A stretch of 40,286 bases of DNA from NCBI GenBank assembly GCA_025456495.1, contig JALOKO010000001.1:1-40286 (forward strand). The letters run 5' to 3'. Of this stretch, positions 8,871 through 40,286 are shown one piece after another. Positions within the stretch are counted from its first letter, which is position 1. The number at the start of each line of letters is the position of its first letter. A model generated the notes under the pieces. It saw only the letters and a program-made list of their open reading frames with translations. It made no database searches and was not told where the DNA came from. The position numbers were made by a program, and so were the translations under genes. The DNA is from Bryobacterales bacterium. Lineage in GTDB: Bacteria > Acidobacteriota > Terriglobia > Bryobacterales > Bryobacteraceae.

Positions 8871-8930
8871 AGTGATGGCATCTTTGCCCCGGAGGCCCAG
8901 TGGCCAGGATGCAGGTTGAGGCCGAGAGCT

Positions 8931-10157: not shown

Positions 10158-10184
10158 CTCACCGGGGGGTAGGATAGGACCGGC

Positions 10185-10613: not shown

Positions 10614-10692
10614 AGGGCTGCTTCCACTCCGCACGCCGGTTGCACCGTCTGTGTCATGCTGCCGCAATGCAATCGCGATAGGGTAAAGGTTT

Positions 10693-11586: not shown

Positions 11587-11594
11587 CGCCTGCC

Positions 11595-16666: not shown

Positions 16667-18092
16667 TGGGGAGTTCCCGTTCTGGCGGGTGTTTGCATTG
16701 GGACAGTGGCTGATTCTGCTGGCTCTGCTGCTGTTTATCGTGTTCACGCTACGCGGGCAAGATCGTCAATTGGCCACATCCCCCCTGGTGGATACGCCGT
16801 CACGGTCGAGCGACGCAGGGCAGAGTGGCGGTTCTGCGATTTCCTTGGCGCAGGCGATCCAGCAGGCATTGAGCCCTACCGGAAATGCGCGCGTGGCCAT
16901 CGCCCGCGAGATGGCGCTGCAAGCGAAGGCGCGCGGGCAACAGGCGAGGGCAGAGCTGCTACCTCACCTTGACGGCGCGGTGTCACAATCCAGCCAGACG
17001 CGTAATCTGCAGGCGCTAGGCATTGAGTTGTCGATTCCCCTGCCCGGGTTCCAGCCACCGCGCTTTGTCGGACCCTTCAACGTTTTCGACGCGCGGGTCT
17101 CAGTCACCCAGCAGATTTTCAGCATGAGTTCGGTACGTCGCTATCGGGCGGCACGCGAAGGCTGGACGGCCGCGCAGGCCGAGGAGCAGCACGCGCGCGA
17201 CTCTGTCGCCACGCTGGTGGCAAAAGCGTATCTCGCAGTGCAACGCGCGGAAGCGCAGGCGCAGGCGGCCTCGGCCACCCTTACCCTGGCGCGCGAGCTG
17301 GAGGACCTGGCACGCAAGCAACGGGAAGTGGGTACCGGCATTGCCTTGGACCTTACCCGCGCCCAGGTGCAGCGGAGTCAGGCCGAGCAGGCGTTACTGC
17401 AACGTGAGACCGAGCGCAGCGCCGCGCGCCTGCAATTACAGCGCCTGATGGGGATGCCTTTGGGCGAGGGGATGGTGGTGGACGCGGAGATGCCTCCACC
17501 GTTGGATGACCTTCCCGCGCTGGATGACGCGCTTGCCACCGCGCTGCGCGAACGCGAGGACCTGCGGGCGCAACAAGCGCGACAGGAAGGCGCCCGCCAA
17601 CTGCAATCCGCCGTGCGGTGGGAACGGTCACCGATGGTGGCAGCCTTCGGGGATTACGGGGCCAGCGGCAATACACCAGCAAATGCCCTTGCCACTCGCG
17701 CCGTGGGACTCACTGCCCGCCTGCCTCTGTTTGATGGCGGACGCCGGGAAGCGAGACGTTCCGAGGCAGCGGCGAAGCAACGGGAAGAAGAGCTCCGGAC
17801 GCGAGATCTGCGACAGCAGGTGGAACTCGACCTGCGCCTGGCATTGGAGTCGCTGCAGTCAACCCGAAGCCAGGTGCTTGTAGCGCTGGACGCTTTTCAA
17901 CAATCGGAACTGGAACTCACCCAAGCGCGGCGTCGCTTCCAGGCGGGTGTTTCCAACAACCTGGAAGTCACCCGTGCGCAGACCACCGTGGAGCAATCCC
18001 GCGTCGCGCGCATTGATGCACTGTTCCGCTACCACATTGCACGGATCGAGTTTGCCTTCGCCAGCGGACGCATGGATGAGGGAATGCAGTAG
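16647..18092 (+). CDS. TolC-family outer membrane efflux protein
   Basis: The protein has two tandem OEP-type repeats rich in A/Q/R/L coiled segments, with motifs such as LPLFDGGRREA and RRFQAGVSNNLEVTRAQ. It has an N-terminal hydrophobic signal. The ATG at 16647 overlaps the marR 3' end by 20 nt. Confidence 0.85.
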   Translation: MRKQRGDGEFPFWRVFALGQWLILLALLLFIVFTLRGQDRQLATSPLVDTPSRSSDAGQSGGSAISLAQAIQQALSPTGNARVAIAREMALQAKARGQQARAELLPHLDGAVSQSSQTRNLQALGIELSIPLPGFQPPRFVGPFNVFDARVSVTQQIFSMSSVRRYRAAREGWTAAQAEEQHARDSVATLVAKAYLAVQRAEAQAQAASATLTLARELEDLARKQREVGTGIALDLTRAQVQRSQAEQALLQRETERSAARLQLQRLMGMPLGEGMVVDAEMPPPLDDLPALDDALATALREREDLRAQQARQEGARQLQSAVRWERSPMVAAFGDYGASGNTPANALATRAVGLTARLPLFDGGRREARRSEAAAKQREEELRTRDLRQQVELDLRLALESLQSTRSQVLVALDAFQQSELELTQARRRFQAGVSNNLEVTRAQTTVEQSRVARIDALFRYHIARIEFAFASGRMDEGMQ

Positions 18093-18145
18093 ATCCCGTC
18101 CCGGCAGCCGGGACAGAGGCCCAAGGCCACGGGGAGAGTGAGCGA

Positions 18146-19336
18146 ATGTCGAAGCCAATACGAGTTGTTCTGGCGATTGTCCTGCTGGCGATGCTGGCGG
18201 TCGTGCTCTGGTTTGCAGTCCTGCGAAGCCAGCCCGCTGAGGCTTCCACGCGAATTGCCGGGAACATCGAACTGACTGAGGTAAACATCGCCTTCAAGAC
18301 CCCGGGCAGACTCGAGGAACTGCATGTGAAGGAGGGAGACCTGGTGAAGGCGGGCCAACTGATTGGGCGTCTCGATACCCAGCAACTGCAAAGCCAGCGA
18401 CAGATGGCTGAGGCTGCCCTCACGGCGGCGCAGAGTCGGCTGCAGCAGCTTGCCACCGCAATTCGCTTCCAGGAGGAAACCATCGCTGGCGTCACCGCGC
18501 AACGCGAAGCAGAGCTTGCGGCGGTGGGGGCCCAGTTGGAGGAGTTGGAAGAGGGTAGTCGTCCGCAAGAGCGGCAGCAAGCGCACGCCGCCTTGCAGCA
18601 GGCCGAAGCAGAGTTTGCGCGTGCCCAAGCAGACTGGCAACGAGCACAGGCGCTGCATGCGGCAGAGGACATCTCCACCGCAGAGCGTGACCGCGTGCGC
18701 GCCTACTTTGCATCCGCCCAGAGCATGCGGGACCAGGCTCGCGAACGGCTCGCGATGGTGGAGGAGGGTCCGCGTGTGACCACCATCCGCTCGGTCTCGG
18801 CACAGGTAGACCGCGCACGGGCAGCATTGCGGACCGCCCAGGCCAGCCGACTGGACCTCGAGCGACTTCGCCAGGAACTGAACACGCGGCAGCAGGAAGT
18901 GAAGCAGGCTACGGCCAACCTGGAGTTGATTGAGACGCAGATTGCAGACGCCAGCGTTCACTCTCCTGTCGATGGCATCGTACTGGTGAAGTCGGCGGAG
19001 CAGGGCGAGGTGTTGGCTGCCGGGGTGACCATCGCCACGGTTGGCAATCTGGCGTCTCCGTGGCTGCGCGGCTATCTGGCGCAGCAGCATCAGGGAAGGG
19101 TTCAGTTGGGTGCACCGGTGCGCGTTTATGTGGATTCGTATCCGGGGCGCGCCTTTGATGGACGGCTGAGCTTTATTGCGGCGGAGGCAGAGTTCACACC
19201 CAAGCAAATCCAAACCGCCGAGGAGCGCGCCAAGCTGGTTTACCGGGTGAAGGTGGACATACCGAATCCCGATGGGGCACTGAAGGCCAACATGCCCGCG
19301 GAGGCGGATTTGCCATTGCTGCCGGTGGAACGATAG
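18146..19336 (+). CDS. HlyD-family membrane fusion protein (YbhG-like)
   Basis: It has an N-terminal TM anchor and the lipoyl-like motif FKTPGRLEELHVKEGDLVKAGQLIGRLD. A long coiled coil follows. The C-terminal beta-barrel contains VHSPVDGIVL and FTPKQIQT. Confidence 0.88.
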   Translation: MSKPIRVVLAIVLLAMLAVVLWFAVLRSQPAEASTRIAGNIELTEVNIAFKTPGRLEELHVKEGDLVKAGQLIGRLDTQQLQSQRQMAEAALTAAQSRLQQLATAIRFQEETIAGVTAQREAELAAVGAQLEELEEGSRPQERQQAHAALQQAEAEFARAQADWQRAQALHAAEDISTAERDRVRAYFASAQSMRDQARERLAMVEEGPRVTTIRSVSAQVDRARAALRTAQASRLDLERLRQELNTRQQEVKQATANLELIETQIADASVHSPVDGIVLVKSAEQGEVLAAGVTIATVGNLASPWLRGYLAQQHQGRVQLGAPVRVYVDSYPGRAFDGRLSFIAAEAEFTPKQIQTAEERAKLVYRVKVDIPNPDGALKANMPAEADLPLLPVER

Positions 19337-19352
19337 GAGAACAGAGGCCATC

Positions 19353-20339
19353 ATGGCGGCGGACTACATGCTGGAAGCACGCGGGCTCACGCGCCGCTTT
19401 GGGTCGCTGACCGCCGTGCGTGATCTCACCCTGCGTATCCCCCGCGGAGAAATCTACGGGCTGGTGGGTCCCGACGGTGCTGGCAAAACCACCACCCTGC
19501 GTCTCTTCTGCGGCTTGATCGACCCGGATGATGGACAGGCGTTGGTAGATGGCATCAACCCCTCGCGCGCGGTCCATGCCGTCCGCGACCGTATCGGTTA
19601 CATGCCGCAACGCTTCGGCCTCTATACAGACCTTAGCGTTGAGGAGAATCTTTTCTTTTACGCGGATCTGTTTGGCATGCTTGGCGCGGAGCGTGATCGG
19701 CTGATGACGGATCTGCTGCGCATGACGCGGATGGAGCCCTTTCGCAAGAGACTGGCGGGCAATCTATCCGGGGGCATGAAGCAGAAGCTTGCCCTGATGT
19801 CCACGTTGCTGCATAAGCCGGAGGTGCTTTTCCTTGACGAGCCAACCAATGGCGTGGACCCGGTATCGCGTCGCGACTTCTGGGAGATCCTCTACCGGCT
19901 GGTGCGCGATGGGCTTACCGTCCTGCTTACCACAGCGTATCTGGATGAAGCTGAACGTTGCCATCGAGTGGGCTTGATGGATAGAGGTCGCCTGATTCTG
20001 GAGGACGTCCCGGGCCGTGTCCGTCATGCTTTGGCTGAGCGCTGTTATGCCGTGCGGCAGCCTGAGTTTGCGACGCTGCGCGCGCTGGGCGCGTTTCTGC
20101 GCAAGCGTCCTGGCGTGTTAAGCGCCGAGGCTTCCGGCCAGGAGATCCGCGCCTTTCTTCCGCCGGAGCAAGCCTACCTGGATGCGCTGCGGATCGACAT
20201 CGAGAAGGCAGGCTTTGATGGGGTGTCCCTCCAGGAGGCTGAGCCGTCGCTGGAGGACGTCTTCATTGCGCTTGTCCGACGTGAGGATCGGCTCCCGATA
20301 TCAGATACCGATAACACCCTCGTTGGAGGCGCCGAGTGA
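19353..20339 (+). CDS. ABC transporter ATP-binding protein (first of two, like one YbhF half)
   Basis: Walker A is GPDGAGKTT, the signature is LSGGMKQK, and Walker B is LFLDEPT. Confidence 0.92.
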   Translation: MAADYMLEARGLTRRFGSLTAVRDLTLRIPRGEIYGLVGPDGAGKTTTLRLFCGLIDPDDGQALVDGINPSRAVHAVRDRIGYMPQRFGLYTDLSVEENLFFYADLFGMLGAERDRLMTDLLRMTRMEPFRKRLAGNLSGGMKQKLALMSTLLHKPEVLFLDEPTNGVDPVSRRDFWEILYRLVRDGLTVLLTTAYLDEAERCHRVGLMDRGRLILEDVPGRVRHALAERCYAVRQPEFATLRALGAFLRKRPGVLSAEASGQEIRAFLPPEQAYLDALRIDIEKAGFDGVSLQEAEPSLEDVFIALVRREDRLPISDTDNTLVGGAE

Positions 20340-21310
20340 TGGAAGCGCCCGCACACCTGAGGGAGAACACCGTGCCAGCAAGCATCACGGTATCCATGCG
20401 TGACCTAAGCAAGCATTTCGGAAGCTTCATTGCGGTGAACAACGTATCGCTGGATGTGGCGCGCGGCGAGATCTTCGGTTTCCTGGGTCCCAACGGTGCG
20501 GGCAAGTCCACCACCATCCGTATTCTCTGTGGTCTGCTCTCGCCCACTTCCGGCAAGGCCACGGTGGCCGGTTTCGACGTTGCCGCCCAACCGGAACAAG
20601 TGAAGCAGAGCATCGGATATATGTCGCAGAAGTTCTCGCTGTACGACGACCTTACCGTGGCGGAGAACATCGATTTCTTCAGCGGCATCTATGGTGTGCC
20701 CGCGGACCTGCGAGCGGAGCGCAAGCAGTTTGCGCTGGAACTCTCCGGGCTGTCCGCGCGGCAGAACTCCCTTACCCGACTCCTGCCCGGAGGCTTCAAG
20801 CAACGGCTCGCCTTGGGCTGCGCTATTCTGCATCAACCACCCGTGCTGTTCCTGGATGAACCCACCTCAGGGGTTGACCCCATCGCGCGACGCGAGTTCT
20901 GGGAACTCATTTACCACCTCTCCGCTGAGGGCAAGACCATCTTCGTCTCCACCCACTACATGGATGAGGCGGAGTATTGCCATCGCATCGCATTGATGCA
21001 CCGGGGGTTGATGATTGCCTTGGGTTCGCCCACGCAACTGAAGCGGGAGTTGGGTGGGGCCAGCCTGCTGCGTCTGGATGCAAGTGACATCCTGCGGGCA
21101 ATGGAGGCGCTTGTCGGCGCGCCCGGCATTGAAGATGTTGCTGTCTTTGGCAGTGGGCTTCATGTGCGTGTACGAAATGTGGAGCACAGCACCCTGCTGA
21201 TTCAGGAGCGGCTGGCCGCCGGCGCCGTCACCATCCAGCGCCTGCAGCCGATTGATGCCTCAATGGAAGATGTGTTCGTAAGCCTGATTGAAGCGGAGGA
21301 GCGCAAGTGA
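20336..21310 (+). CDS. ABC transporter ATP-binding protein (second of two, like the other YbhF half)
   Basis: Walker A is GPNGAGKST, the signature is LPGGFKQR, and Walker B is LFLDEPTSG. Its start overlaps the stop of the previous gene (ATGA-type overlap at 20336-20339). Confidence 0.92.
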   Translation: MMEAPAHLRENTVPASITVSMRDLSKHFGSFIAVNNVSLDVARGEIFGFLGPNGAGKSTTIRILCGLLSPTSGKATVAGFDVAAQPEQVKQSIGYMSQKFSLYDDLTVAENIDFFSGIYGVPADLRAERKQFALELSGLSARQNSLTRLLPGGFKQRLALGCAILHQPPVLFLDEPTSGVDPIARREFWELIYHLSAEGKTIFVSTHYMDEAEYCHRIALMHRGLMIALGSPTQLKRELGGASLLRLDASDILRAMEALVGAPGIEDVAVFGSGLHVRVRNVEHSTLLIQERLAAGAVTIQRLQPIDASMEDVFVSLIEAEERK

Positions 21311-22449
21311 GCCCGCCCCTTCGCCGTACTCTTGCCATTGCACGCAAGGAGTTTTTGCACATCGTGCGCGACCCGCTGAGTCTGGCCATGGCGCTGGCGA
21401 TTCCTTTTGCCATGTTGATGCTGTTCGGGTACGCCTTGTCGCTGGACGTAGATCGCGTGCCCACGGTCGTGTTCGATGGCAGCCGCACACCACAAAGCCG
21501 CGAACTGATTGCGTATCTCGATGGCTCGCGGTACTTCGAAGTCACGGAGGTGGTTACAGACTACAAGCCTGTTGAGCAGGCCATCTTCAGCGGCCAAGCA
21601 TTGCTGGGAGTTGTCATTCCGGCTGACTTCGCGCGGCGGGTCCACCGTGGTGACGCAACGGACGTTCAGGTGATTCTGGATGGCAGTGACTCCAACACCG
21701 CCAACATCGCGGCCGGGTACGCCCAAGGGGTGCTGGGGAAGTACAGCAATCAACTACAAGCGCAGTTTGCCAATTTGCGCGGCGCGGGTCCGGTGCATCC
21801 GCCACTGGACGTGCAGGCTCGTGTCTGGTTCAACGCGGACTTGAAGTCAAAGAACTTCATCATCCCCGGCCTCATTGCCGTGATCCTGCAGATCATCGCC
21901 GCGTTGTTGACCTCGCTTACCATTGCGCGCGAGTGGGAACTGGGAAACATGGAGTTGCTGTTGTCCACTCCTATGCGTCCATGGGAACTCATCCTGGGCA
22001 AGATGGCCGCGTTCTTTGCGATTGGGGTGGCGGATACCACCTTCGCGGTATTGGTTGGGCGTACGGTTTTCGGCGTGCCGTTACGTGGAAGTCTGTGGGA
22101 CTTGAGCATTGCCATCTTCTTCTTCCTTTTCGGCGCGCTTTGCTGGGGACTGCTGATTTCTGCCCTTGCGCGCAACCAGTTGCTTGCTTATCAGATTGGC
22201 ATCCTCACTTCCTTCCTGCCCTCGTTTCTGCTGTCAGGCTTCATTTACGCCATTGAGAATATGCCTGTGCCCGTGCAGGTGGTGACGCATATTGTGCCCG
22301 CGCGCTACTTCATCGCGATCCTGAAGGGGGTCTTCCTGAAGGGCATCGGCTATGACATTCTGTGGCCCCAACTGTTGTTCCTGTTCCTGTACGCCTTGGG
22401 CGTCTTTCTGATTGCCAGCCGCCGGCTGAACCAGAAACTGGTGGACTAA
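21307..22449 (+). CDS. ABC-2 type transporter permease (YbhS/YbhR-like)
   Basis: The N-terminus reads RTLAIARKEFLHIVRDP. A large periplasmic loop is followed by about 5 TM segments. A GTGA overlap joins it to the upstream ATPase stop. Confidence 0.88.
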   Translation: MSPPLRRTLAIARKEFLHIVRDPLSLAMALAIPFAMLMLFGYALSLDVDRVPTVVFDGSRTPQSRELIAYLDGSRYFEVTEVVTDYKPVEQAIFSGQALLGVVIPADFARRVHRGDATDVQVILDGSDSNTANIAAGYAQGVLGKYSNQLQAQFANLRGAGPVHPPLDVQARVWFNADLKSKNFIIPGLIAVILQIIAALLTSLTIAREWELGNMELLLSTPMRPWELILGKMAAFFAIGVADTTFAVLVGRTVFGVPLRGSLWDLSIAIFFFLFGALCWGLLISALARNQLLAYQIGILTSFLPSFLLSGFIYAIENMPVPVQVVTHIVPARYFIAILKGVFLKGIGYDILWPQLLFLFLYALGVFLIASRRLNQKLVD

Positions 22450-23618
22450 TGCAATTTCCAAAGTGGGAACGTGTCTTCGAAATCGTGCGCAAGGAATTCC
22501 GGGTGGTTGTGCGCGACCCACGGCTGCGCATCGTACTGATTGTGCCCCCCATCCTGCAATCCATCATCTTCGGCTTCGCCGTGAACATGGATGTTGAGCA
22601 GGCGCGCATCGGCTGGCATGATGGCGATGGCACGCCGCAGAGTCGCGAACTGCGCATGGCCTTTGAGGGTAGCGGCAGCTTCCTGCTTACCCATCATCTG
22701 CAGCAGGACGCGGAAGCGAACTTACTGCTCAACCGGGGTGATGTGGACGCCATCGTTCGCGTGACGCCGGGCTTTGGCAGGGCAATCCTGCGCGGGGACA
22801 CGGCCAGCGTCCAGATGCTGATTGACGGCGCAAACTCCAACACGGCATCCATTGTGGGCGAGTATGCCCGACGCGCAATCAGTGGCTATTCGCACCAGGT
22901 GCAGGTGGTTCAACAGGGCCAGCGCATCCTTGCCCGCACCCAGGGTAAAGGCCCGCCAGTGACGCTGGCGCTGCCGAGTGTGAACGCGCAAAGCCGCGTC
23001 TGGTTCAACGAAAATCTGGTGAGCCGCAACTACTTTGTGCCCGGGGTGGTGGTGAACATCATCGCCTTGGTGACGCTGATGCTGACCGCGCTCGCGATCG
23101 TCCGAGAGAAAGAAATTGGCACGATGGAGCAACTGATCGTGACGCCCATCCAGCCCTTGGAACTGATGCTGGGCAAGACGATCCCCTTCGGCTTGGTGGG
23201 CCTTTTCCATGTCACGATGCTCACCATTCTGGCCCGCGCCTTATTTGGCGTTCCTTTCCGTGGCAGTCTGCTGGTGCTGTACATTGCGTCGGTTCTCTTT
23301 CTGCTGACTACGCTGGGCGTGGGGCTGTTCATCTCCACCATGGTGCGTACACAACAGCAGGCGATGATGGCCACGTTCTTTTTCTTCTTCCCCGTGCTGC
23401 TGTTGAGCGGTTTCGCATTCCCGATTCGCAGCATGCCGGAGATTGTGCAGTGGGCCACTTATCTGAACCCCGTCCGCTATTTCATGGAGATCGTTCGAGG
23501 GCTGTTCCTGAAGGGATGGGGCGTGATGGAGCTATGGCCACAACTGCTGGCGATGGGCGTGTTGGGCTGCACCGTGATTCTGGCCAGTGCCTCCCGGTTC
23601 CATAAGCGGCTGGACTGA
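22449..23618 (+). CDS. ABC-2 type transporter permease (YbhS/YbhR-like paralog)
   Basis: This is a paralog of the preceding gene (FEIVRKEFRVVVRDP...) with the same architecture. The ATG at 22449 overlaps the previous TAA (TAATG). Confidence 0.88.
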   Translation: MQFPKWERVFEIVRKEFRVVVRDPRLRIVLIVPPILQSIIFGFAVNMDVEQARIGWHDGDGTPQSRELRMAFEGSGSFLLTHHLQQDAEANLLLNRGDVDAIVRVTPGFGRAILRGDTASVQMLIDGANSNTASIVGEYARRAISGYSHQVQVVQQGQRILARTQGKGPPVTLALPSVNAQSRVWFNENLVSRNYFVPGVVVNIIALVTLMLTALAIVREKEIGTMEQLIVTPIQPLELMLGKTIPFGLVGLFHVTMLTILARALFGVPFRGSLLVLYIASVLFLLTTLGVGLFISTMVRTQQQAMMATFFFFFPVLLLSGFAFPIRSMPEIVQWATYLNPVRYFMEIVRGLFLKGWGVMELWPQLLAMGVLGCTVILASASRFHKRLD

Positions 23619-29851: not shown

Positions 29852-32164
29852 ATGCGATTCACTCAATATCCCGCCTTGACACGCACCTCGTTGCTGGGCG
29901 CCCTGCTGACCTTCTGCCTGTTGGGCAGTGCAGTGCTTTCCGCCCAGCAGGCGCCCGCCACTTCCTGCGCCGAAGAACTGCGCCTATCTGGTACGGCGCG
30001 TGACGAGGGCGGCGGCACGCTGGTGGGTGCGGTGGTTGTGGTTCGCCGCGCAGTCACCAATGATGTCCTGGAAACCAAGACCGACGATGAGGGCGAGTTC
30101 CGTGTGTGCTTGCCCGCGCGGGGCCGCTACCGGGTGGAGGTACGCGCCGCGCAACTGCAGCCGTCCGTGCAGTTCATCGATGTCGCCTCCACCGGGTCAT
30201 CCACGGTGCATGCTGTACTCGCAGTCAACAGCCTGCGCAACAGCGTGACGGTGGTATCCGCATCGCGCCTTGAAGAGCTGCAAGCGGAGACCCCCGTGCG
30301 GGTAGAAGCAGTGACCAGAGAAGACATACAGCGCACGGGGTACGAGCGCGTCAGTGACGTCCTGGCCGAGATCCCGGGCGTGGTGACGCGAGCCGGATCA
30401 ATGGGTGGTGTCGCGGGGCAACAGATTCAGGGGCTGGACTCCCGGCAGGTGCTGGTGCTACAGGACGGCATGCCGGTGATTGGCGCACGCGGCATCAAGA
30501 GGGGCATCGTCAACATGAACCGGCAGTCCGTTGGCCGTTTGGAGAGTGTGGAAGTGGTGAAGGGCGCCGGCTCCGCCATGTACGGTAGCGATGCCATTGG
30601 CGGCGTCATCAACATGCGCACCCGCGAAATCCCTGACCGCTTGGACATCAACGCCCAGATCTCAGGTGGAAGCTTGGGGGCCGTGGACGGGCGCTTTGAT
30701 ATCGGTGGCCGATATAAGAACCTGTGGACGTTCCTAAACCTGGAAACGCATCGCATGGATTCCTATTCCCTGGTGCCGGGCAGTCCCATCACTGTAGGGC
30801 CCCAAATGCAACGCAACGACCTTCTGTACAAGTCCCGCTGGATGGCCACTGACCGTGCGGCACTCGGTGTGGTCGCCAATGTGTACCGCAATGATGAGCA
30901 GGGAGTGAACCTCGCGGAAGGAGGCGGCGTCGCCAGCGGCAACACCATTGACAGCGCCCAGAACTATACCCTCACCGGCGACTTTACGTTGTCACCATCC
31001 ACTGTGCTGCAGGCCCGCGCCTATGCTGCCCGCTATGACGAGAATGCCCGCACCGTTGCATTGGGGGCGGCGCTGGACGTGCCCGCCGTTGCCAATCTCA
31101 ACGAACGATTGGGACGTCTGGACGCTACCATCAGTCACCAGTGGGGCTCGCGGCACTACGTGCAAGCAGGCGGCGAGTGGAACCAGAACCTGTACCGTGG
31201 CGCCAACCGGCTGGTGGGGGACAACACAGGGCAACAGATCAGGACCAACGATGTCTGGGTTCAGGATCGCGTCCGGCTGAATGCTCGGGCTACGCTTACT
31301 GTGGGCGGGCGTGTCCATCAGCACTCGATGTATGGATCCCGATTTGTCCCGCGCGCCGGTCTGGTGTGGGGACTATCAGACCGGTGGGCAGTCCGCGCCG
31401 CCTACTCGGAAGGTTTTCGCGCGCCCGACCTGGGCCAGTTGTTCTTCCGCTTCGCCAACCCCACCGCCTTCTATCAGGTGATTGGCAACCCCAACCTGCA
31501 GCCGGAAAACTCACGGTCCTATTCCACCGGAGTGCAGTACACCAGCCGCCGCTTCACGGCGAATGTGGGGGTATTCCGCAATCAGGTGAATGATCTGATT
31601 GACTCCTTCAACGTGGGCTTTCTGGCCAGCCCCGGACAGCTTACCGGATTCTTGAATGAATACGGGATTCCTGGTGACTTTCGTCCGCTGCCCGGGCGCC
31701 TTACCTTTGTCTATCGAAACCTTGCTCAGATCTATACCCAAGGTATTGAGGCGGATACGCGCATCCTGTTGCCATTGGGTTTTCGCGCCAACCTCGGCTA
31801 TGCCTTCCTGGATGCCATCAACCGCCAGAACGGGCAGCAGCTACCACAGCGTCATCGCCACCAGGGTCTATTTCGGCTGGATTATCTACGCCAAAAAGAC
31901 GGATTTTTCGCCAGCCTCCGTGGCGCTTATTTTAGCCGCTGGCCCATTAACCCCGCACAGGGCACCTTCGGCTTTGGCTACCAAATGTGGGACGCCTATA
32001 CCGAAAAGAACCTGCCCAAGCGTCTAACCGTGTTCGGGGCGGTGGATAACCTGATGGATAGCCGCGACCGCAAGCTGGATAATCCCCAGCCCACCTTTGA
32101 CCGGCCCGACTTCGGAAGGACCTTCCGTGTGGGTATGCGCTTCCGTCTCAGCGCAGAGAACTAA
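29852..32164 (+). CDS. TonB-dependent receptor with an N-terminal carboxypeptidase-regulatory-like domain
   Basis: An SD (aaggag) lies 7 nt upstream of the ATG, and a signal peptide is present. The CarboxypepD_reg-like segment reads LSGTARDEGGGTLVGAVVVV..TDDEGEFRV. The plug region reads VEAVTREDIQRTGYERVSDVLAEIPGV and YGSDAIGGVINM. The C-terminal beta-strand reads RTFRVGMRFRL. Confidence 0.9.
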   Translation: MRFTQYPALTRTSLLGALLTFCLLGSAVLSAQQAPATSCAEELRLSGTARDEGGGTLVGAVVVVRRAVTNDVLETKTDDEGEFRVCLPARGRYRVEVRAAQLQPSVQFIDVASTGSSTVHAVLAVNSLRNSVTVVSASRLEELQAETPVRVEAVTREDIQRTGYERVSDVLAEIPGVVTRAGSMGGVAGQQIQGLDSRQVLVLQDGMPVIGARGIKRGIVNMNRQSVGRLESVEVVKGAGSAMYGSDAIGGVINMRTREIPDRLDINAQISGGSLGAVDGRFDIGGRYKNLWTFLNLETHRMDSYSLVPGSPITVGPQMQRNDLLYKSRWMATDRAALGVVANVYRNDEQGVNLAEGGGVASGNTIDSAQNYTLTGDFTLSPSTVLQARAYAARYDENARTVALGAALDVPAVANLNERLGRLDATISHQWGSRHYVQAGGEWNQNLYRGANRLVGDNTGQQIRTNDVWVQDRVRLNARATLTVGGRVHQHSMYGSRFVPRAGLVWGLSDRWAVRAAYSEGFRAPDLGQLFFRFANPTAFYQVIGNPNLQPENSRSYSTGVQYTSRRFTANVGVFRNQVNDLIDSFNVGFLASPGQLTGFLNEYGIPGDFRPLPGRLTFVYRNLAQIYTQGIEADTRILLPLGFRANLGYAFLDAINRQNGQQLPQRHRHQGLFRLDYLRQKDGFFASLRGAYFSRWPINPAQGTFGFGYQMWDAYTEKNLPKRLTVFGAVDNLMDSRDRKLDNPQPTFDRPDFGRTFRVGMRFRLSAEN

Positions 32165-32286: not shown

Positions 32287-33363
32287 TCACGGCCGACAGG
32301 TATCGATGGATTCGAATCGTCCTCCGAAGTATCGGGTATTCATCCACAAGGCCACGTTTACCAGGCCAATCAGCACCGGCACTTCCACCAGGGGGCCGAT
32401 GACCGCCGCAAAGGCAGCTCCGTGGTGGATACCGAAGGTTGCAATCGCCACCGCGATAGCCAATTCAAAGTTGTTGGACGCCGCCGTAAAAGAGAGTGTC
32501 GTTGCTTCCGCATACCGGGCGCCTACCTTCCTGCTCATCCAGAAGGATACTCCAAACATCAACAGGAAATAGATTGTTAGCGGGATCGCGACACGCACAA
32601 CATCGAAGGGGAGTTGGATGATCATCTCCCCTTTCAGAGAAAACATCACAATGATGGTGAAAAGCAGCGCCACCAAAGTAATGGGACTGATACGCGGAAT
32701 CAATGTCTGCTCGTACCAGACTTTGCCTTTCGCCCGCACAAGCAGGAACCGGGTGATCATCCCAGCAAGGAACGGAATACCCAGATAGATGAATACGCTC
32801 TCAGCGATCGCCGCCATTGATATGTCCACTTCAACGGCCTTCAAGCCTAACCATGCGGGAAGGGTAGCCAGGAAAAAGTAAGAATACGCGGAAAAGAAAA
32901 GCACCTGAAAAATCGAATTCAGGGCGACTAATCCAGCCGCATACTCACGGTCGCCGCCTGCCAGGTCGTTCCAGACAATTACCATGGCGATACAGCGGGC
33001 AAGCCCGATGAGTATGAGTCCCGTCATGTACTCGGGCTTGTCGCGAAGAAACAGTATCGCCAAACCGAACATGAGCAGCGGGCCAACAATCCAGTTCTGA
33101 ATCAACGAAAGGATGAGTACGCGGCGGTGTTGGAACACGTTTCCAAGCTCCTCATACTTTACCTTCGCCAGCGGTGGGTACATCATCAGAATCAGGCCCG
33201 CCGCGATGGGTAGCGAGGTTGTGCCGACACTGAACGAGTCCAGAAACGGCACGATGCCGGGCAGGAAGAAGCCCGCTGCTACCCCGAACGCCATGGCGAC
33301 GAAGATCCATAGCGTAAGAAACCTGTCCAGGAAGGAGAGTCGGCTGGATGTTGAACTAGCCAT
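32287..33363 (-). CDS. acr3: ACR3-family arsenite efflux permease
   Basis: The N-terminus reads [23 protein letters not shown]. The motifs [14 protein letters not shown] and [21 protein letters not shown] include the conserved Cys of ACR3. The layout has about 10 TM segments. Confidence 0.93.
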
Positions 33364-33525: not shown

Positions 33526-33939
33526 CTACCGCTGCTGGAGGTAGAAATCCTTCACGTGAGCATGGATTTCGTCCCGAATGCGACGAAAGGCGGCAAGCCG
33601 CTCATCATCGGAGCCCTCCACCGCCGCGGGGTCCTCAAAACTCCAGTGGATACGCTGGGTATCCGCGGGGAACACAGGACAGTTGTCCCTGGCGTTGTCG
33701 CAGACACTCACCACGTAGTCAAAATGCTGTCCTTCGAACTCATCGATCGCCTTGGAACGATGGGCGGAAAGATCGATGCCAATTTCTTCCATCACCTGGA
33801 TGGCTTCCGGGCGCACGAAAGTGGCCCGAGTGCCCGCGCTGGCGACCTGGAATTGTCCAGCGCCTTCGTGGCGGAACAACCCCTCGCCCATCTGGCTGCG
33901 GGCAGAGTTCGCGGTGCAAAGAACGAGAATGCGCTTCAT
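33526..33939 (-). CDS. arsC: Arsenate reductase, LMW-PTPase (thioredoxin-coupled) type
   Basis: The P-loop is VLCTANSARS (CX5R-S). The downstream Cys pair is VCDNARDNC. An ATG at 33939 is preceded by GAGG. Confidence 0.88.
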   Translation of the reverse strand: MKRILVLCTANSARSQMGEGLFRHEGAGQFQVASAGTRATFVRPEAIQVMEEIGIDLSAHRSKAIDEFEGQHFDYVVSVCDNARDNCPVFPADTQRIHWSFEDPAAVEGSDDERLAAFRRIRDEIHAHVKDFYLQQR

Positions 33940-33988
33940 CGGTGACCTCTCCAAACTGGGTCCGGCGTCGTGATGGGTCCGGCCGCGG

Positions 33989-34339
33989 CTAATGGCAAAC
34001 GTTCACCAGACTTTGCCCTGTTCCTGCCGCGCTACTGCGAGTGCAGCACTCGGCATAGAGGAAGTTGACGAGTTCCTGAAGGCCATCCAGATTCACTGAG
34101 TACCACAGGAAAGTTCCCTCGCGTCTGGAGACAATCAGCCCCTCGTGGCGCAGCTTCTCCAGATGATGCGACAGCGTGGATGGGGCAATGCCCAGTTCCG
34201 CCTGGATGGACCCAGCGATCAGCCCCTCCGGATGCGCCGCCAGCAGCAGCCGGACAATCCGCAATCTGGACTCAGAGCCCAGCGCGCTCAACATATCAGC
34301 GAAGCGAAGCGTCGGGTCTTCTTTCTTCTTGCGGGGCAT
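33989..34339 (-). CDS. arsR: ArsR/SmtB-family metalloregulator with C-terminal Cys cluster
   Basis: The wHTH reads LSALGSESRLRIVRLLL...AGSIQAELGIAPSTLSHHLEKLRHEGLI. There is no CVC motif in helix 3. Instead the C-terminus contains AECC...VNVCH. Confidence 0.88.
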   Translation of the reverse strand: MPRKKKEDPTLRFADMLSALGSESRLRIVRLLLAAHPEGLIAGSIQAELGIAPSTLSHHLEKLRHEGLIVSRREGTFLWYSVNLDGLQELVNFLYAECCTRSSAAGTGQSLVNVCH

Positions 34340-34490: not shown

Positions 34491-36866
34491 CTACGAGGGG
34501 TTGGCGACGGATGGGGCGTCGATGCGTTCACCGGGTGACTGCTGCCGGGTGGCCTCTCCCAGTCTTTTGAGTTGCAGTGGCTGTGGCGTGGATTGCAGTA
34601 GCTGCGGTGTGGATACGTCGTTCGCCATTGGAGCGTTGGTGGTTGTCTTTGCCCCAAGCGCCAGCGGCGCTCCGATTTGCTGGTTGGGGCCTCGGGGCTT
34701 CGGGTGAACGGGCAATTCCAGCGTGAATGCTGACCCGTTTCCAGGCCCGGCACTCCAGCCGGCGAGGCTGCCCCCCAGTTCTCGCGCGGCATTCGCTCCA
34801 GAGTGCAACCCAAAGCCATGCCCCTCTGGCTTGGTGGTGAAGCCGTGACGGAAGAGCTTGCCAATGAGTTCCTCGCTCATGCCGACGCCGTTGTCCAACA
34901 CCACAATGCGAATGCGGTTCTCATCAACGCCCTCGGCGCGGACGGTGATCTGCTTGTGCTTGGACGTGGATTGTTTCAGGGCGTCCTTGGCGTTCTGCAG
35001 CAGGTTCAAGATGATCTGCAAGACCTTGTGCTTGTCGGTGAAGATCACCATGTCGTCGGGCACATCCGCCATCACGCCAATGCCGTGTCGCTCCATCCCC
35101 TCATGGGAGAGCGATAGCGCATCCTGCACCACCTTCTTGATTTCAAGGCTCTGGACGAAGCCCGCGGTGGTGGCATAGTTCTGCTGGGCCGCGACGATTT
35201 CCTTGATGTGGCCCACGTGGCGGCTCATGTTGGTGAGTTCCTTCAGAATCTGCTCGCGCTCCTCAAGGAGAAATCCTGAAAGCTTCGAGAGATACGGCAG
35301 CACATGCATGCCTTTGGAATCTGAACGCACGTACTCGTCCAGTTGCCCCTGATGTTCCACCAGCATCTTTGTGACCGAGTCAAGTCTCTCCAATTTGGAT
35401 TGCTGCACCCGGTCGCACACCACCGTTGCGGCCACGTTCAAGCTGTTCAGCACATTGCCCACGTTATGCAACACGCCGGTGGCCACTTCGGCCATGCCGG
35501 CACGCCGGGAGAGATCAACCATGCTCTGCTGGACTTCTTCCAACTGTTGGCGCGCGGCCTCCTTTTGCAGCACCTGCTCGTTCAGTTCCTGAGTGCGCTC
35601 CATCACGCGGCGCTCCAACATATTGTTTGCGTCCAATAGAGCTTCCTGCGCCTGGCGACGTAGGATGGCTGCCCCCAGCATGTGAGCCACCGCGCGCAGG
35701 CTCTCCAACTCAATACCTTCGCGGTTCGTCACCACGTGGCGGGTCTCCAGGCACAGCGCACCCCACAGTGCGTCACCGACAACAACGGGCGCCATGCGCA
35801 GCATGCGGGCTGTCTCCGGCGTGAGCGGGTCTTCGACGCGGAGCATCCGCCCACGCAGGGTGCTGAAGATCTCATGTTGCTCAAGGGTGTTCACGGCATC
35901 GGATGGCACGCCGGTTGTCCAATCCACCATCCTCCATGGAATCGTGCTGGAGGGAAGCTCAGGGGCCTGCCATGCACATTCCAACTCGCATGCGAAGTGA
36001 ATCTGCTGCGGGTCCCTGCGCAGGACGTACACGCAGCACCCGCCCAAGGCGAGGCCAAGCGATTGCAGGACGTTGCCCACCACATCCTGCCAGCAGTTGG
36101 CCAACACCAACTGTTGGGCGCTATCGCCAATACACTCCAGCGCCCTGTTGCGGGTAAGGATTGCTGCGGTCATGCCGTTGAAGGCCTCAGCCAGTTCGCC
36201 AATCTCGTCCTTGTTCTTCAAGTCGGCGCGGGTGTTCAGGTTCCCTTCGGAGACCTGTTCCATGGCCGTATGCAGGACGCGCACCGGCTGCATCAACCGT
36301 TGTGCGTATAGCGCCGAGACCAGCAGACTGAGGGCAATACAAACCAGGGCAATGATCAGCGTGGTGCTAAGGTTGCGCTGGACGCTGGCGTCGTAGGTTT
36401 CCAGTGAGAGGCCGATGTGAATCCAGCCCCATTCCAGACCGCTGTAGTCAAACGGCGCCGAGAAGTGGAACACGCGCCGACCGGCAATGGTGACCTCCCG
36501 GATGCCAGCGGTCTCCATCCTCTTTTGCGGTCGCCAGGATTGGTCAAGGGTCTCAATCGTCCACTGATCGCGCTGGGTGAGGATGGAGTAGCCGTCGTTC
36601 TTCGTGATCACCAGGTACTCGATGGCTGCGTCTCCTTCCAGCACCTGGATTGTGTGGTCAACCACGGAAGAGTAATCCTCCGATACGGCCGCCCCTGCCA
36701 CGGTTGCGCGGATGGATGCCGCCACGCCACGCGCTTTCGACTGCAGGTTCGTTTGAAACTCACGGCTCTGCTGCGGCAGACTTACCACCAGAAATACGGC
36801 CAGAGTGATGCTGGAGAGCAGCCAACTCAGCATCGCCACGCGAAATGCCATTCCATGCCGACGCAT
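34491..36866 (-). CDS. Membrane sensor histidine kinase: periplasmic loop, HAMP, GAF-like region, DHp, HATPase_c, and no receiver domain
   Basis: Two TM segments flank a loop of about 150 aa. The HAMP region reads [39 protein letters not shown]. The H-box region reads [18 protein letters not shown]. The N-box reads [13 protein letters not shown]. The G-boxes are DNGVGM and GHGFGLH. The start is either ATG 36866 or GTG 36869, and either one overlaps the upstream stop. Confidence 0.88.
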
Positions 36867-37876
36867 CACGCACCTCCCTGCTTTCCCTTGGAGCTTTGCA
36901 GTGCGCGGTACCGCCTCCAGAATTCCCTGCTGGTTCGCAGGTGCTTGTCCTCCGCAAGAGCATGGCCCGCTGACCGAAACACTGTCAGCAACTGCTTTCC
37001 ATGGGTGGATTGACTCAACTCCACAATCGCCTTGACGAGGTCAGCCCGATAGCGGTGAGGCTTGATGGGAGTAGAAGTGACCCGATCCAACAATGGCGCC
37101 GACCGCGCAATCACGCGAAGCCTTTTCAATTGAGCATTCATCTCGCCTAGCAGTTGGAAGCTATGCTCATCCACCAGACAGGCATCGCCCTTCTTGAAGT
37201 AGACCGGCAGCACACAATCCTGCGGACGGTTTACCCGCTGCACACCGGCAAAGTGCTGCGTCATCTCCGCGAGGGATTGGTCAACCAGTTCCATCGTCAA
37301 CCACGCTACAGCGGTTCCAGACTGGAGCTTCGGATACAGCAGCAGCCGGGACTGTTGCAGATCCGCGAGGCTGTTTGCGGCGGACTCCGGATGGACCACG
37401 ACAATGTAGGAAGTTCGCGGGTCGTCTGTGCCGGAGAGCAGGTCCAGCACCAACGGCGCCACCATGCGTCTCTCTTCCAGCTCAAAGTACTCCGATACTT
37501 CCAGCAGCAAAACGTCTGCTTCGTCGCGCTCCAGCATCTGTCGCACTTCCCGCGTGCTGGAGGTTGGACGTACGCTGGATCGAATCGAGAAGCCGTATTC
37601 TTTGCCGATATAGTCAGCCCAGGTGGTGACGGCGGCGATGGCGTCGTTCCGGGATAAGGTCCCCAACATGCCGTCACTGATGATGACGTTCAGTCTGGTG
37701 CTCCGCAGGTTGGCGGCGGCGCTCGATTCCGCTGCGTGGGTTGCGTCGCCGATTCGCGTGGCGGATTGACCAAGGCCGAGCTGGGTAGTCATCGCCACCA
37801 ACAGGCTGAGCATTGGCAGCCAGCGCCACGCGCGCACCGCCCAGGCGGTCCTGGATTGTTGTCCGCTCATGGTCAT
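36866..37876 (-). CDS. PhnD-like (type 2 periplasmic binding fold) substrate-binding protein, paralog 3
   Basis: It has a Sec-type signal. Blocks shared with the two upstream paralogs include LNVIISDGMLGTLSRNDAIAAV, SLADLQQSRLLL, PQDCVLPVYFKKGDACLV, and LLGEMNAQLKRLRVIARS, which corresponds to L(G/T)ELNP(Q/K)LS in the other two. The ATG at 37876 overlaps the upstream TGA (ATGA). Confidence 0.65.
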   Translation of the reverse strand: MTMSGQQSRTAWAVRAWRWLPMLSLLVAMTTQLGLGQSATRIGDATHAAESSAAANLRSTRLNVIISDGMLGTLSRNDAIAAVTTWADYIGKEYGFSIRSSVRPTSSTREVRQMLERDEADVLLLEVSEYFELEERRMVAPLVLDLLSGTDDPRTSYIVVVHPESAANSLADLQQSRLLLYPKLQSGTAVAWLTMELVDQSLAEMTQHFAGVQRVNRPQDCVLPVYFKKGDACLVDEHSFQLLGEMNAQLKRLRVIARSAPLLDRVTSTPIKPHRYRADLVKAIVELSQSTHGKQLLTVFRSAGHALAEDKHLRTSREFWRRYRALQSSKGKQGGA

Positions 37877-38844
37877 GAAGTTGCTCCGCGCACGATGCCA
37901 TGCTCATCCTGCCAGCCCTTCGCTACTGCTTTGTCGATCAGGTCCATGGTTGGGTACATATGTGATGCATTGCGGATTCTCAGGTCCTGTAATTGGAATA
38001 GGCTGAGGACCTGCCTACCCGAGACGCTTTCGGCCATCAGGCTCATTGAACCGGCAAGAATCTGCTTGGCCTTGGGATGGGTTTGCTTGCTGAGTGCATA
38101 AGCGCCAGCCACCAGCTCCGGCGACGTTTCTATGGCAACCAGTTGTTTGGAGAGTTGGGGATTCAGTTCCCCCAAGGGAGACACCACGGGAGCGAGGATC
38201 AAGCATGCTTCGGCCTTGCGAAAAAACACGGAAAGGACGACCTGCTGGGGACGCGATGCGTGTTGGATGTCAGCGAAGAAGCGTGCTCCAACCGGCCCAC
38301 CATGAGGTACGGTGAGCAAATGGAGCCACGCCATGGCCGTGCTCATCCTGGGACTCTGGTGCACCATCAGCCGCTTGTTCTTCAGGTCGGCGATGCTCTG
38401 ATACCCCGCATCACGCCGCACAAGCACCTGTAACTGCTGGGTGCCGGTATAGGTTGGGCAGGCAAGGATGGACGGATCGAACATCGGGCGCAGCCTCCAA
38501 TACTCCACCGCGTTCAGAGCTGCGCTATCCAACGCTCCTGACTCCAGTTTGTGGGCGATCACCTCGAACCGTTCGAAGAACTCCGCGTTGATGTCCACAC
38601 GCGCCTGCACGTCCTGCATCACGCGGCTGATCCACACCTTCATGGCGGCCCGGGCGTCGTTCAGATTGGCTTCCCCCAACAGCGAGTCACTGATGGACAA
38701 TCTCAGGAAAGGCGCCGATGCCGCCACCTCTCTCCGTGCGATGCCCAAGCCCAACAGGGAGCGCATCAGCCAGGCTCTGCGGGAGGGGCTAGCAAGGCCA
38801 GCGACCGACGCTGTGTGATGTGGATTCCCGGCAAGCAGGCTCAT
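37873..38844 (-). CDS. PhnD-like substrate-binding protein, paralog 2
   Basis: Conserved blocks are LRLSISDSLLGEANLNDARAAMKVW, SIADLKNKRLMV, PQQVVLSVFFRKAEACLI and LGELNPQLSKQLVAIETSP. An RR-containing N-terminus (SRRAWLMRSLLGLG) is present. The ATG at 38844 overlaps the upstream TGA (ATGA). Confidence 0.65.
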   Translation of the reverse strand: MSLLAGNPHHTASVAGLASPSRRAWLMRSLLGLGIARREVAASAPFLRLSISDSLLGEANLNDARAAMKVWISRVMQDVQARVDINAEFFERFEVIAHKLESGALDSAALNAVEYWRLRPMFDPSILACPTYTGTQQLQVLVRRDAGYQSIADLKNKRLMVHQSPRMSTAMAWLHLLTVPHGGPVGARFFADIQHASRPQQVVLSVFFRKAEACLILAPVVSPLGELNPQLSKQLVAIETSPELVAGAYALSKQTHPKAKQILAGSMSLMAESVSGRQVLSLFQLQDLRIRNASHMYPTMDLIDKAVAKGWQDEHGIVRGATS

Positions 38845-39788
38845 GCGCTGCCCTCCTTGAGGATGCCTGCCTCGTCCGTCCAACCCAATCGGACGGCCTC
38901 GTCGATCAGCTTCATGGCCCCGTTCAGAACAGAAGTGTGTTGCTGCCGAAATCCCCGAACCTGGAACAGCGAGAGCACCAGCTTTCCCGATTCATGCGCC
39001 GACAGGGCGGCAAGCGCGTTGGCCAGGGCGTCGCGATACGCTCTCGGGCAGGCCACGCCGAACGCATATGCGCCGGGTTCCAGTGGCGGTGAAGTGGCGA
39101 CGATCAGCAGGTCGCGAGAGAGCTTCGGATTCAGCTCCGTCAGCGACTGCATTGCCGATTCCAGCACCAGGCCGCAGTCTGCCTGTCCGAAGTACACCGG
39201 CAGTACCACTTGCTGCGGCCGCTTCCAAAGACTGACTTCACCAAAGAACTTTCCGGCGGTGCGCTGCCGCAATGGCTGCGTAAGGATATGCAGCCACGGC
39301 GCGGCAAGACAGGTTTGCGGATTGCTCTGGACAAGCAATCGTTTCCCCATGAGATCCGCCAACGACTCCACGCCCTTGCCTCGGCGCGAAATCAGGAGAT
39401 AGCGCGGTTCCTCCTGATGCTCGGCCACCACCACGGTCGTGGGATCCAGCAGGGGACGAAGCTTCCAGTACTCCACGGCGCTGATGGCAACCGATTGCGC
39501 GATGCCGCTTCGCAACTGCGCTGAGATTGAGGGAAATGTAACGAACAGGTCCGCTTCCAGGTCGGCGGGAAGGAACAGTTGCTCCTTCAGACGCCGAATC
39601 CACACGCTCATTGCCGCTCGCGCGTCATTCTGATTGACATCACCAAACAGAGACTCTGAAATCGCGACGCGGATGTTGTGCCTTGCAGGCTCCGGCGCCG
39701 CCATCGCGGGAAGAGCAACGGCAAGACTGAGCAACTGCCGACGGTTCAGCACTGTGCCAGGCGGGCGAGTTGGAGCCAAGAGTGTCAT
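38841..39788 (-). CDS. PhnD-like substrate-binding protein, paralog 1
   Basis: Conserved blocks are IRVAISESLFGDVNQNDARAAMSVW, SLADLMGKRLLV, PQQVVLPVYFGQADCGLV and LTELNPKLSRDLLIVATSP. The N-terminus is Tat-like (NRRQLLSLAVALPAMAA). Confidence 0.65.
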   Translation of the reverse strand: MTLLAPTRPPGTVLNRRQLLSLAVALPAMAAPEPARHNIRVAISESLFGDVNQNDARAAMSVWIRRLKEQLFLPADLEADLFVTFPSISAQLRSGIAQSVAISAVEYWKLRPLLDPTTVVVAEHQEEPRYLLISRRGKGVESLADLMGKRLLVQSNPQTCLAAPWLHILTQPLRQRTAGKFFGEVSLWKRPQQVVLPVYFGQADCGLVLESAMQSLTELNPKLSRDLLIVATSPPLEPGAYAFGVACPRAYRDALANALAALSAHESGKLVLSLFQVRGFRQQHTSVLNGAMKLIDEAVRLGWTDEAGILKEGSA

Positions 39789-39821
39789 TGCGTTACCCGT
39801 TGCTGCGAGCGCCTGCGCGCC

Positions 39822-40286
39822 TTAGTCCAACAGCCCCAGCGCCTTCTGAAATTGCTTGCCAATCACCAGGGACATGCGCGATTCCACGGACAGCCGGTCA
39901 TAGCGCGTCTTCCAGTACTGCGCCGCGGCCAGTGATTCATATATTTGGGCGCGAATCACCTTTTCTGTCTCCACCAGTTCGCTTTCGTAGGCGCGCGCCG
40001 CCAGTTCACGGTTCTCCACAGCGGCCTCCATTGCACGCTGCGTTGCCTGCAAGGATTGCGTGACCGCGTCCAACTCCAGGAACAGATCGCGTACCTGCAG
40101 GCCAATGCCTTCCTTCAGCAGTACGCGCTCCTCCTTCAGCTTGTTGAGGCGGGCCCTTGCCTCAGCCACCTTATACTTCGTCAGGTTGCCATTGAAGAGA
40201 GGGATTTCCGCTCCCGCGCCCACCATCCAGCCCGCGCGGTTGGCCTGCGTAGAGGCACCGGCGTCGTAGCTGTTCCACCAGCGATG
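39822..40286 (-). CDS. TolC-family outer membrane protein, C-terminal part (the gene continues beyond the window end)
   Basis: The frame is open to position 40286. The sequence ..NRAGWMVGAGAEIPLFNGNLTKYKVAEARARLNKLKEE..ATQRAMEAAVENRELAARAYESELVE matches the OEP repeat pattern. The stop lies 33 nt upstream of paralog 1's start. Confidence 0.7.
   Translation of the reverse strand, partial: HRWWNSYDAGASTQANRAGWMVGAGAEIPLFNGNLTKYKVAEARARLNKLKEERVLLKEGIGLQVRDLFLELDAVTQSLQATQRAMEAAVENRELAARAYESELVETEKVIRAQIYESLAAAQYWKTRYDRLSVESRMSLVIGKQFQKALGLLD

Follow-up and report, generated by a model that had tools for sequence, protein, structure and literature searches.

What function can be assigned to three periplasmic binding proteins that are encoded without a transporter, between the gene for a TolC-like outer-membrane protein and that for a histidine kinase? 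Such a gene group lies at one end of a 40,286-nucleotide stretch of DNA from a Bryobacterales bacterium (Acidobacteriota; GenBank assembly GCA_025456495.1, contig JALOKO010000001.1, positions 1 to 40,286), hereafter called the window. An earlier note, written from the sequence alone, had proposed that the three proteins act as co-sensors of the kinase and not as parts of a transport system. This proposal was supported by the present analysis: no importer genes were found, the proteins matched the Pfam family PF12974 and the gene order proved to be conserved. The locus is probably, though by no means certainly, one copy of a sensory operon that is widespread in several phyla and consists of a dedicated outer-membrane efflux protein (OEP), one to six transporter-less substrate-binding proteins (SBPs) of the PhnD fold, a WalK-like sensor histidine kinase (HK1) and a cytoplasmic hybrid histidine kinase (HK2). 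Most likely, the module senses conditions around or within the cell envelope through multiple receptors.

The five genes were described before as running in one direction on the minus strand, and this was upheld by the listing of open reading frames (ORFs) and by reading of the sequence. The TolC-family OEP gene is represented by its 3' end (39822-40286), which encodes the C-terminal 154 amino acids (PF02321, E 4.7e-13) and is cut by the window end. After a gap of 33 bp from its stop codon to the next start, it is followed by the genes for SBP1 (38841-39788; 315 amino acids), SBP2 (37873-38844; 323 amino acids) and SBP3 (36866-37876; 336 amino acids) and by the gene for HK1, a membrane sensor histidine kinase of 792 amino acids (34491-36869). 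The stop/start overlaps that had been reported could be read directly in the sequence. The stop codon of SBP1 and the start codon of SBP2 share the ATGA at 38841-38844, those of SBP2 and SBP3 share the ATGA at 37873-37876, and the stop of SBP3 and the start of HK1 overlap in the GTGATG at 36864-36869. In the public gene call, SBP2 begins at a later ATG (38766); the upstream ATG, and hence the overlap of SBP1 and SBP2, is favoured here because the SRRAxL motif is conserved in the ortholog P0002. The public call for SBP1 uses a GTG start that lies 12 codons downstream of the start used here.

The three SBPs score 70.3 (SBP1), 63.6 (SBP2) and 67.7 bits (SBP3) against PF12974, all above the gathering cut-off of 27 bits, and the matches span model positions of about 6-241 of 242, which confirms that they belong to a binding-protein family. 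SBP1 and SBP2 are 40% identical, and SBP3, the most divergent of the paralogs, is about 30% identical to either; since their mutual identities are just about 30-40%, the three are considered to be old paralogs. The earlier description of the N-termini also held on inspection: those of SBP1 (NRRQLL) and SBP2 (SRRAWL) contain an RR pair, and that of SBP3 is Sec-like with a longer linker. The RR motif was found in only 65 of 217 members of the SBP family.

The region beyond the window end was inspected by means of a near-identical metagenome contig (L001), which reaches 2.9 kb further upstream. The full-length OEP encoded on this contig has 501 amino acids, two OEP repeats (E 1.1e-35) and a hydrophobic N-terminal leader ending in AKA. 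A hybrid histidine kinase (HisKA-HATPase_c-REC) is encoded 112 bp upstream of the OEP gene in the same direction, and no permease, ATPase or membrane fusion protein (MFP) gene was found upstream of the OEP gene there. In this lineage, therefore, HK2 lies just upstream of the OEP gene and outside the window. The closest relative of the module that was found through the kinase sensor (L092; sensor 65% identical) has the layout hybrid kinase (REC-HisKA-HATPase-REC), OEP, four SBP genes and HK1. One of these four SBP genes encodes just 168 amino acids (7562-8068) and the sensor kinase is present as two ORFs of 355 and 407 amino acids (10001-12231), so that this copy may have suffered frameshifts or decay or may be misassembled. 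At a further locus (L003, 42% identical), orthologs of SBP1, SBP2 and SBP3 are found together with the kinase, and both the order and the overlaps are kept.

A profile of the SBPs was scanned against one genome per species. This gave 105 relatives, and 80 loci were retained and annotated with phmmer seeds, the taxa being taken from the record titles. The order OEP, SBP(s) and kinase with an orthologous N-terminal sensor was observed at about 60 of the 80 loci, and those departing from it are mostly cut at contig ends. The loci belong to about eight phyla and include Acidobacteriota (Bryobacterales, Solibacter and Paludibaculum), Verrucomicrobiota with Kiritimatiellia, Desulfobacterota and Nitrospirota, as well as Eisenbacteria, Calditrichaceae, Synergistaceae and one alphaproteobacterium. 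The gene order is thus conserved in related genomes and far outside the Acidobacteria. Since the same order and tight spacing occur at about 60 of 80 independent genome loci, the arrangement is beyond chance. Neighbouring genes overlap by 4 or 1 bases, or lie at most 30 nt apart, in 54 of 71 cases between OEP and SBP, 123 of 138 between SBPs, 48 of 66 between SBP and HK1 and 23 of 27 between HK1 and HK2. When the 54 modules bounded by OEP and HK1 genes were compared, 9 were found to have 1 SBP gene, 13 to have 2, 19 to have 3, 8 to have 4, 4 to have 5 and 1 to have 6.

HK2 follows HK1 in 36 of 60 modules and precedes the OEP gene in 7, as in the lineage studied here. Where it was checked, it has the composition REC-PAS-HisKA-HATPase-REC, with REC domains on both sides of the kinase core; HK1 itself carries a fused REC domain in 14 of 60 orthologs. 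The flanking ORFs of all 80 loci were clustered, and no recurrent family of permeases, ATPases or MFPs was found among them. The sole recurrent family encodes HDOD or REC-GGDEF-EAL proteins and lies downstream (19 ORFs in 16 loci). In a search of 1.84 billion representatives, the SBP profile matched 1,450 representative clusters (50% identity) at E <= 1e-30 and 3,696 at E <= 0.001. As just 3,696 representatives were matched at the latter threshold, the SBPs would appear to form a distinct subfamily of moderate size and not generic PhnD proteins, though canonical PhnD proteins were not counted.

In several genomes the module or its SBP genes occur at least twice (L057/L086, L055/L059, L039/L072, L077/L083 and L087), and at L087 two modules adjoin each other (70-12160); these multiple copies suggest that the system as a whole has expanded into paralogs within single genomes. 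A gene for a Mu-type transposase/integrase (rve, Mu-transpos_C_2) was observed at L012 (12899-14158) directly after the sensor kinase, at the site that is occupied by the hybrid kinase in other loci.

The earlier note had also stated that the window has no ABC (ATP-binding cassette) permease or ATPase for the five genes. ABC genes are in fact present on the plus strand (19353-23618); what stands is that no importer is encoded, as these genes form part of an OEP-HlyD-ABC-2 exporter operon, located about 13 kb from the module on the opposite strand. ABC-2-type exporters make no use of binding proteins.

The nature of the binding proteins was approached through their relatives of known structure. 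Single-sequence searches of the PDB with SBP1 and SBP3 gave nothing at E <= 1. With the family profile, ArrX was the best match (E 2.5e-9) and BstB (7T1M) the second (E 2.5e-7); XAC2383 was not significant (E 0.76). SBP1 was the protein chosen for modelling, and its AlphaFold2 (AF2) model (predicted local distance difference test, pLDDT, 83.6) shows the two-lobed class II binding-protein fold. On searching with this model in Foldseek, the top matches were ArrX, XAC2383 (second, E 5e-16), PtxB and AioX, and PhnD and BstB were matched as well, all six at E 1e-12 to 2e-16.

The pocket of the AioX/ArxX/ArrX group is made up of Y88, C106, Y131, S161, S163, H192 and D210 in AioX numbering (PMC5908839). 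The corresponding columns hold F/S/P/Q/C/P/L in SBP1, F/N/Q/R/S/P/L in SBP2 and T/E/T/Q/G/P/D in SBP3, and none of the seven AioX-group pocket residues was found to be retained by SBP1, SBP2 or SBP3. Across 220 family members the commonest residues at these columns are T/V, T/N, E, R/K, S/C, P/L and T; five of the seven AioX pocket residues are not among the common ones, and equivalents of S163 and D210 persist in a minority. SBP1 and SBP2 reach 26.0 and 22.1 bits with TIGR01098 (PhnD/PtxB/HtxB; cut-off 112.05) and SBP3 has no match, while the BstB equivalog NF045601 (cut-off 350) gives 14.5 bits with SBP1 and 15.6 bits with SBP3. Because the pocket residues are replaced and the TIGR01098 and BstB scores lie far under their cut-offs, the ligands of the SBPs are probably neither phosphonate nor arsenic oxyanions.

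HK1 consists of a first transmembrane helix (TM1), a periplasmic sCache-like domain, a second helix (TM2), HAMP, a GAF-like region, DHp, HATPase_c and a tail, with matches to HAMP (4.7e-15), HATPase_c (3.8e-16), GAF (0.0049) and sCache_3_2 (3.3e-4). The kinase had been credited with a periplasmic loop of about 150 amino acids, and about 140 were found between the helices at residues 11-29 and 171-189. The sensor domain in this loop (approximately residues 30-170; 36360-36782, minus strand) is the proposed docking site of the SBPs. PF17203 (sCache_3_2) scores 21-25 bits on the HK1 of the window, which is below the gathering cut-off of 28.4; it is matched by 31 of 62 orthologs, with a best E of 2e-7. 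The AF2 model of the HK1 N-terminus was based on an alignment shallower than the 62-ortholog set. This model (pLDDT 80.8) was matched by Foldseek to WalK (TMq 0.81) and then to Cache/PDC domains of Tlp3, DctB and CitA, which makes the periplasmic part a single Cache domain. Further downstream, a motif search located an H-box-like GVLHNVGN at the expected position, and its His468 (codon at 35466-35468, minus strand) is the presumed phospho-acceptor on the basis of position and motif; the Pfam HisKA profile was not matched. HATPase_c is followed by a low-complexity tail of about 65 amino acids rich in Pro, Gln, Thr and Ala (residues ~726-792; 34491-34690, minus strand), which has no domain match and is either functional or a read-through to a late stop codon.

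The members of the module are conserved to different degrees. Over the 62 orthologs, which come from several phyla, the region of HK1 that comprises TM, periplasmic domain, TM and HAMP has a mean column identity of 55%, and many residues of its periplasmic part are invariant, among them D65, G93, W103 and W147. The module OEPs of 61 loci have a median identity of 54.6% to the OEP of the window lineage, compared with 26% for the other OEP of the window (16593-18092). The mean column identity of the SBPs is 26%, and clustering of 217 of them at 50% identity yields 116 clusters. Of 194 SBPs, 150 are most closely related to an SBP of a different locus; first-position SBPs pair with first-position ones in 31 of 62 cases and last-position SBPs with last-position ones in 34 of 62, where about 18 would be expected. 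The paralogs are thus old and positionally stable, with position-specific orthology, and the overall pattern is that of a conserved chassis (OEP and Cache kinase) with differentiated receptors. It had been remarked earlier that an outer-membrane channel gene at the head of a sensory operon is unusual; this is the case, but it was missed that the OEP is a dedicated and conserved part of the operon and that HK2 belongs to it. The dedicated OEP is an integral component of the module and the novel element in it.

The co-sensor interpretation is supported because the closest solved relatives of the SBPs act in signalling only, because the HK1 sensor is a single Cache domain and because this sensor is far more conserved than the SBPs. 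AioX is a signalling-only PF12974 protein that acts on AioS, the sensor of which is sCache-like (PMC8050422; PMC5908839). The AioX/ArxX/ArrX-AioS/ArxS/ArrS systems resemble the module in having a transporter-less PF12974 protein beside an sCache-like membrane kinase (PMC5908839; PDB 6ESK, 6X6B). They differ from it in having a single binding protein, in lacking an OEP gene as well as a second hybrid kinase, and in having a sigma-54-type AioR, which is absent here; the seven pocket residues of these proteins, as described above, are replaced in the SBPs of the window. A further parallel is provided by XAC2383, the second-best fold match of SBP1, since in many loci the module, too, has enzymes of cyclic di-GMP (c-di-GMP) metabolism downstream. 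XAC2383 is reportedly a single PhnD-fold periplasmic receptor paired with a transmembrane signalling partner, the diguanylate cyclase XAC2382, and we know of no OEP in that system. In TtrS/ThsS, a PhnD-fold module likewise serves as the input of a two-component kinase, but TtrS/ThsS carry the binding domain as a fused part of the kinase, whereas here the SBPs are separate and multiple and HK1 keeps its own Cache domain (PMC5408782). Structurally, the HK1 N-terminus, with its order TM-sCache-TM-HAMP, is matched best by WalK (YycG). WalK is controlled by the accessory extracytoplasmic proteins YycH and YycI. It is, however, a Gram-positive kinase from cells without an outer membrane, and YycH/YycI are membrane-anchored and do not have the binding-protein fold.

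According to the proposed mechanism, each SBP would be exported to the periplasm and capture its own ligand in the cleft between the lobes. The liganded SBP would then dock on HK1 at its highly conserved sCache domain, a step with which the genomic coupling and the conservation pattern are consistent. HAMP and GAF would relay the resulting change and HK1 would autophosphorylate at His468, from where the phosphate could pass to the REC domains of HK2 and on to outputs, which in many genomes may be the REC-GGDEF-EAL or HDOD proteins (often c-di-GMP enzymes). The OEP would also be part of the device, either as an outer-membrane gate through which ligands reach the SBPs or by forming the outer end of a complex that spans the envelope. 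It is possible, though doubtful, that the whole constitutes a hitherto unrecognised kind of trans-envelope signalling device, in which a pump-free TolC-family protein serves as entry or contact point at the outer membrane and interchangeable PhnD-fold receptors link it through the periplasm to a Cache kinase and a two-kinase phosphorelay. Equally tentative is the suggestion that such a device on a TolC scaffold, found from Acidobacteriota to Verrucomicrobiota, Desulfobacterota and Nitrospirota, might be analogous in function to TonB-dependent transducers such as FecA-FecR.

A number of observations weigh against the SBPs being ligand-binding co-sensors. Near the module, no DNA-binding response regulator is encoded in this organism. 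We know of no sensory system in which a role of an OEP is established, and at a few loci (L026, L039) the core of SBPs and kinase occurs without an OEP. As the pocket residues are replaced, the SBPs could conceivably serve as scaffolds without a ligand, and a specificity-determining test of the seven cleft columns was weakly positive (63rd-87th percentile, modestly above average columns). Finally, a distant lineage (L004, about 30% identical) has a fragment of an ABC ATPase, a 794-amino-acid FtsX (MacB-like) permease and an MFP encoded directly upstream of the OEP gene (3-5478). The sensory genes there are attached to a complete tripartite efflux pump, i.e., an exporter and not an importer, so that efflux may be the function of the OEP and the kinase no more than a regulator of it.

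This last arrangement favours a rather unlikely alternative, in which the OEP is an exit duct, the SBPs carry hydrophobic or toxic cargo to it and the kinases regulate expression according to the cargo. The nearest solved relatives of the OEP, which are distant (E ~2e-7), are indeed the efflux ducts CusC, SilC and OprM, and in tripartite efflux systems (CusCFBA, MexAB-OprM and MacAB-TolC) the outer-membrane factor belongs to the same family as the module OEP, which has the two OEP repeats. In CusCFBA, the OEP gene even has that of a small periplasmic binding protein as its neighbour. On the side of the SBPs, BstB (MCA1014, PDB 7T1M), which binds sterols and is proposed to be a sterol carrier, was the second-best sequence match in the PDB as well as a fold match. 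Like the SBPs, it has a PF12974 fold that has departed from oxyanion binding, and both have an N-terminal N/RDAxxA helix and a C-terminal GxxxLxxF motif, by which the hydrophobic cavity of BstB is lined (PMC10942540). BstB, however, works with the RND-type (resistance-nodulation-division) inner-membrane protein BstA and with BstC, without a kinase, and the NCBIfam BstB scores of 14-16 bits are to be compared with a cut-off of 350. The module also differs from tripartite efflux systems in lacking an MFP or inner-membrane pump next to its OEP (in L001, L092 and the genome loci, with L004 as the exception), although a pump encoded elsewhere is conceivable; no inner-membrane transporter or MFP recurs beside it in the 80 loci, and its OEPs form a well-conserved subgroup of their own. 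We know of no TolC-family duct that opens without an adaptor. The highly conserved periplasmic domain of HK1, coupled to the last SBP gene, is more in keeping with a sensory partner than with a regulator in chance proximity.

It is also unlikely that the module is a ligand-independent sensor of envelope integrity, in which the SBPs act as structural adaptors that link the HK1 Cache domain to the OEP at its periplasmic tip and the kinase reports the status of the outer membrane and periplasm. NlpE-CpxA and RcsF-IgaA are cases with which such a sensor may be compared. This explanation would account for the high conservation and co-inheritance of OEP and HK1 sensor, for the loss of the canonical ligand residues of the PhnD and AioX groups and for the family-wide invariance of W165, N220 and the ELNPQ motif in all paralogs whatever their position, and the position-specific orthology suits a fixed hetero-assembly. 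A copy number that varies from 1 to 6, on the other hand, is hard to square with a fixed structural bridge, and some loci have no OEP at all. Moreover, for six of the seven cleft columns the conservation inside an ortholog group is 0.77-0.89, and the residues differ from one group to the next, as would be the case for real binding sites.

A sensor of arsenic oxyanions was suggested by the likeness to ArrX and by the adjacent genes. Directly downstream of HK1, and likewise in the minus direction, are arsR (33989-34339), an arsC of the low-molecular-weight phosphatase type (33526-33954) and acr3 (32287-33363). The SBPs would then be AioX/ArrX-like and control these genes through the kinase, an explanation which we consider very improbable. 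ArrX is the best match in sequence and fold; arsR begins 151 bp past the HK1 stop in the same direction, and the interval has no terminator-like site (a promoter/terminator scan found nothing either way), and a verrucomicrobial locus (L049) likewise has arsR-arsC-acr3 beside the module. It was nevertheless rejected, on the replacement of all seven AioX-group pocket residues in all three SBPs and on the adjacency not being conserved: the closest relative (L092) has no ars genes, and besides the window and a near-duplicate contig (L002) the full set occurs only at L049, against a rough chance expectation of about 0.5. In addition, an AioR-type regulator is absent, as are aio, arr and arx (molybdenum enzyme) genes, and the ars operon encodes a repressor of its own, ArsR. 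The notion that the SBPs are orphans of a phosphonate, phosphite or phosphate ABC importer with permease and ATPase encoded elsewhere, favoured by the Pfam family name of PF12974 and the PhnD-like fold, was rejected as scarcely credible on the low TIGR01098 scores, the loss of oxyanion-binding residues, the flanks (no phnC/phnE-type genes in the operon, in the 2.9 kb upstream on L001 or at the ~60 conserved loci) and the ABC-2 exporter type of the window ABC genes, and the small profile family also suggests that the SBPs are set apart from the bulk of PhnD.

If the SBPs are co-sensors of HK1, as is preferred here, they join a small group. SBP-dependent sensor kinases are already known from AioX-AioS, TorT-TorS, LuxP-LuxQ and ChvE-VirA. 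To our knowledge there is only a handful of them, each with a single binding protein. In the literature searched, which had most subscription journals outside its coverage, no account was found in which a TolC-family gene is a conserved part of an SBP-kinase system, nor one of tandem arrays of PhnD-fold receptors before one kinase; the absence of a published account is not proof of novelty. With about 1,450 SBP clusters in about eight phyla, the module would be a large natural family of SBP-dependent kinases, and many of its carriers belong to poorly studied lineages from soil, sediment and anaerobic habitats. A conserved chassis with swappable receptor arrays would be a candidate source of new ligand sensors and a test case for the integration of several periplasmic receptors by one kinase. 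The conserved TolC-family gene raises the question of whether outer-membrane factors may perceive signals independently of efflux. Genetics would be feasible in Paludibaculum fermentans, a cultured carrier (locus L023).

Other genes of the window were noted in passing. The exporter operon mentioned above (16593-23618, plus strand) comprises genes for an OEP (16593-18092), an HlyD-type MFP (18146-19336), two ABC ATPases (19353-21310) and two ABC-2 permeases (21307-23618). A full-length gene for an RND pump of the AcrB/AcrD/AcrF type is located at the window start (41-3265, plus strand; E 8.9e-268), and the gene for its MFP partner presumably lies upstream, beyond the window. A TonB-dependent receptor with an N-terminal CarboxypepD_reg domain is encoded convergently with acr3 (29852-32164, plus strand); its Plug and barrel are given in the public annotation of L002. 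A gene for a GAF-ANTAR RNA-binding regulator is present at 7061-7744 (plus strand), with a tRNA-Gln(CTG) gene nearby at 5518-5591 (minus strand).

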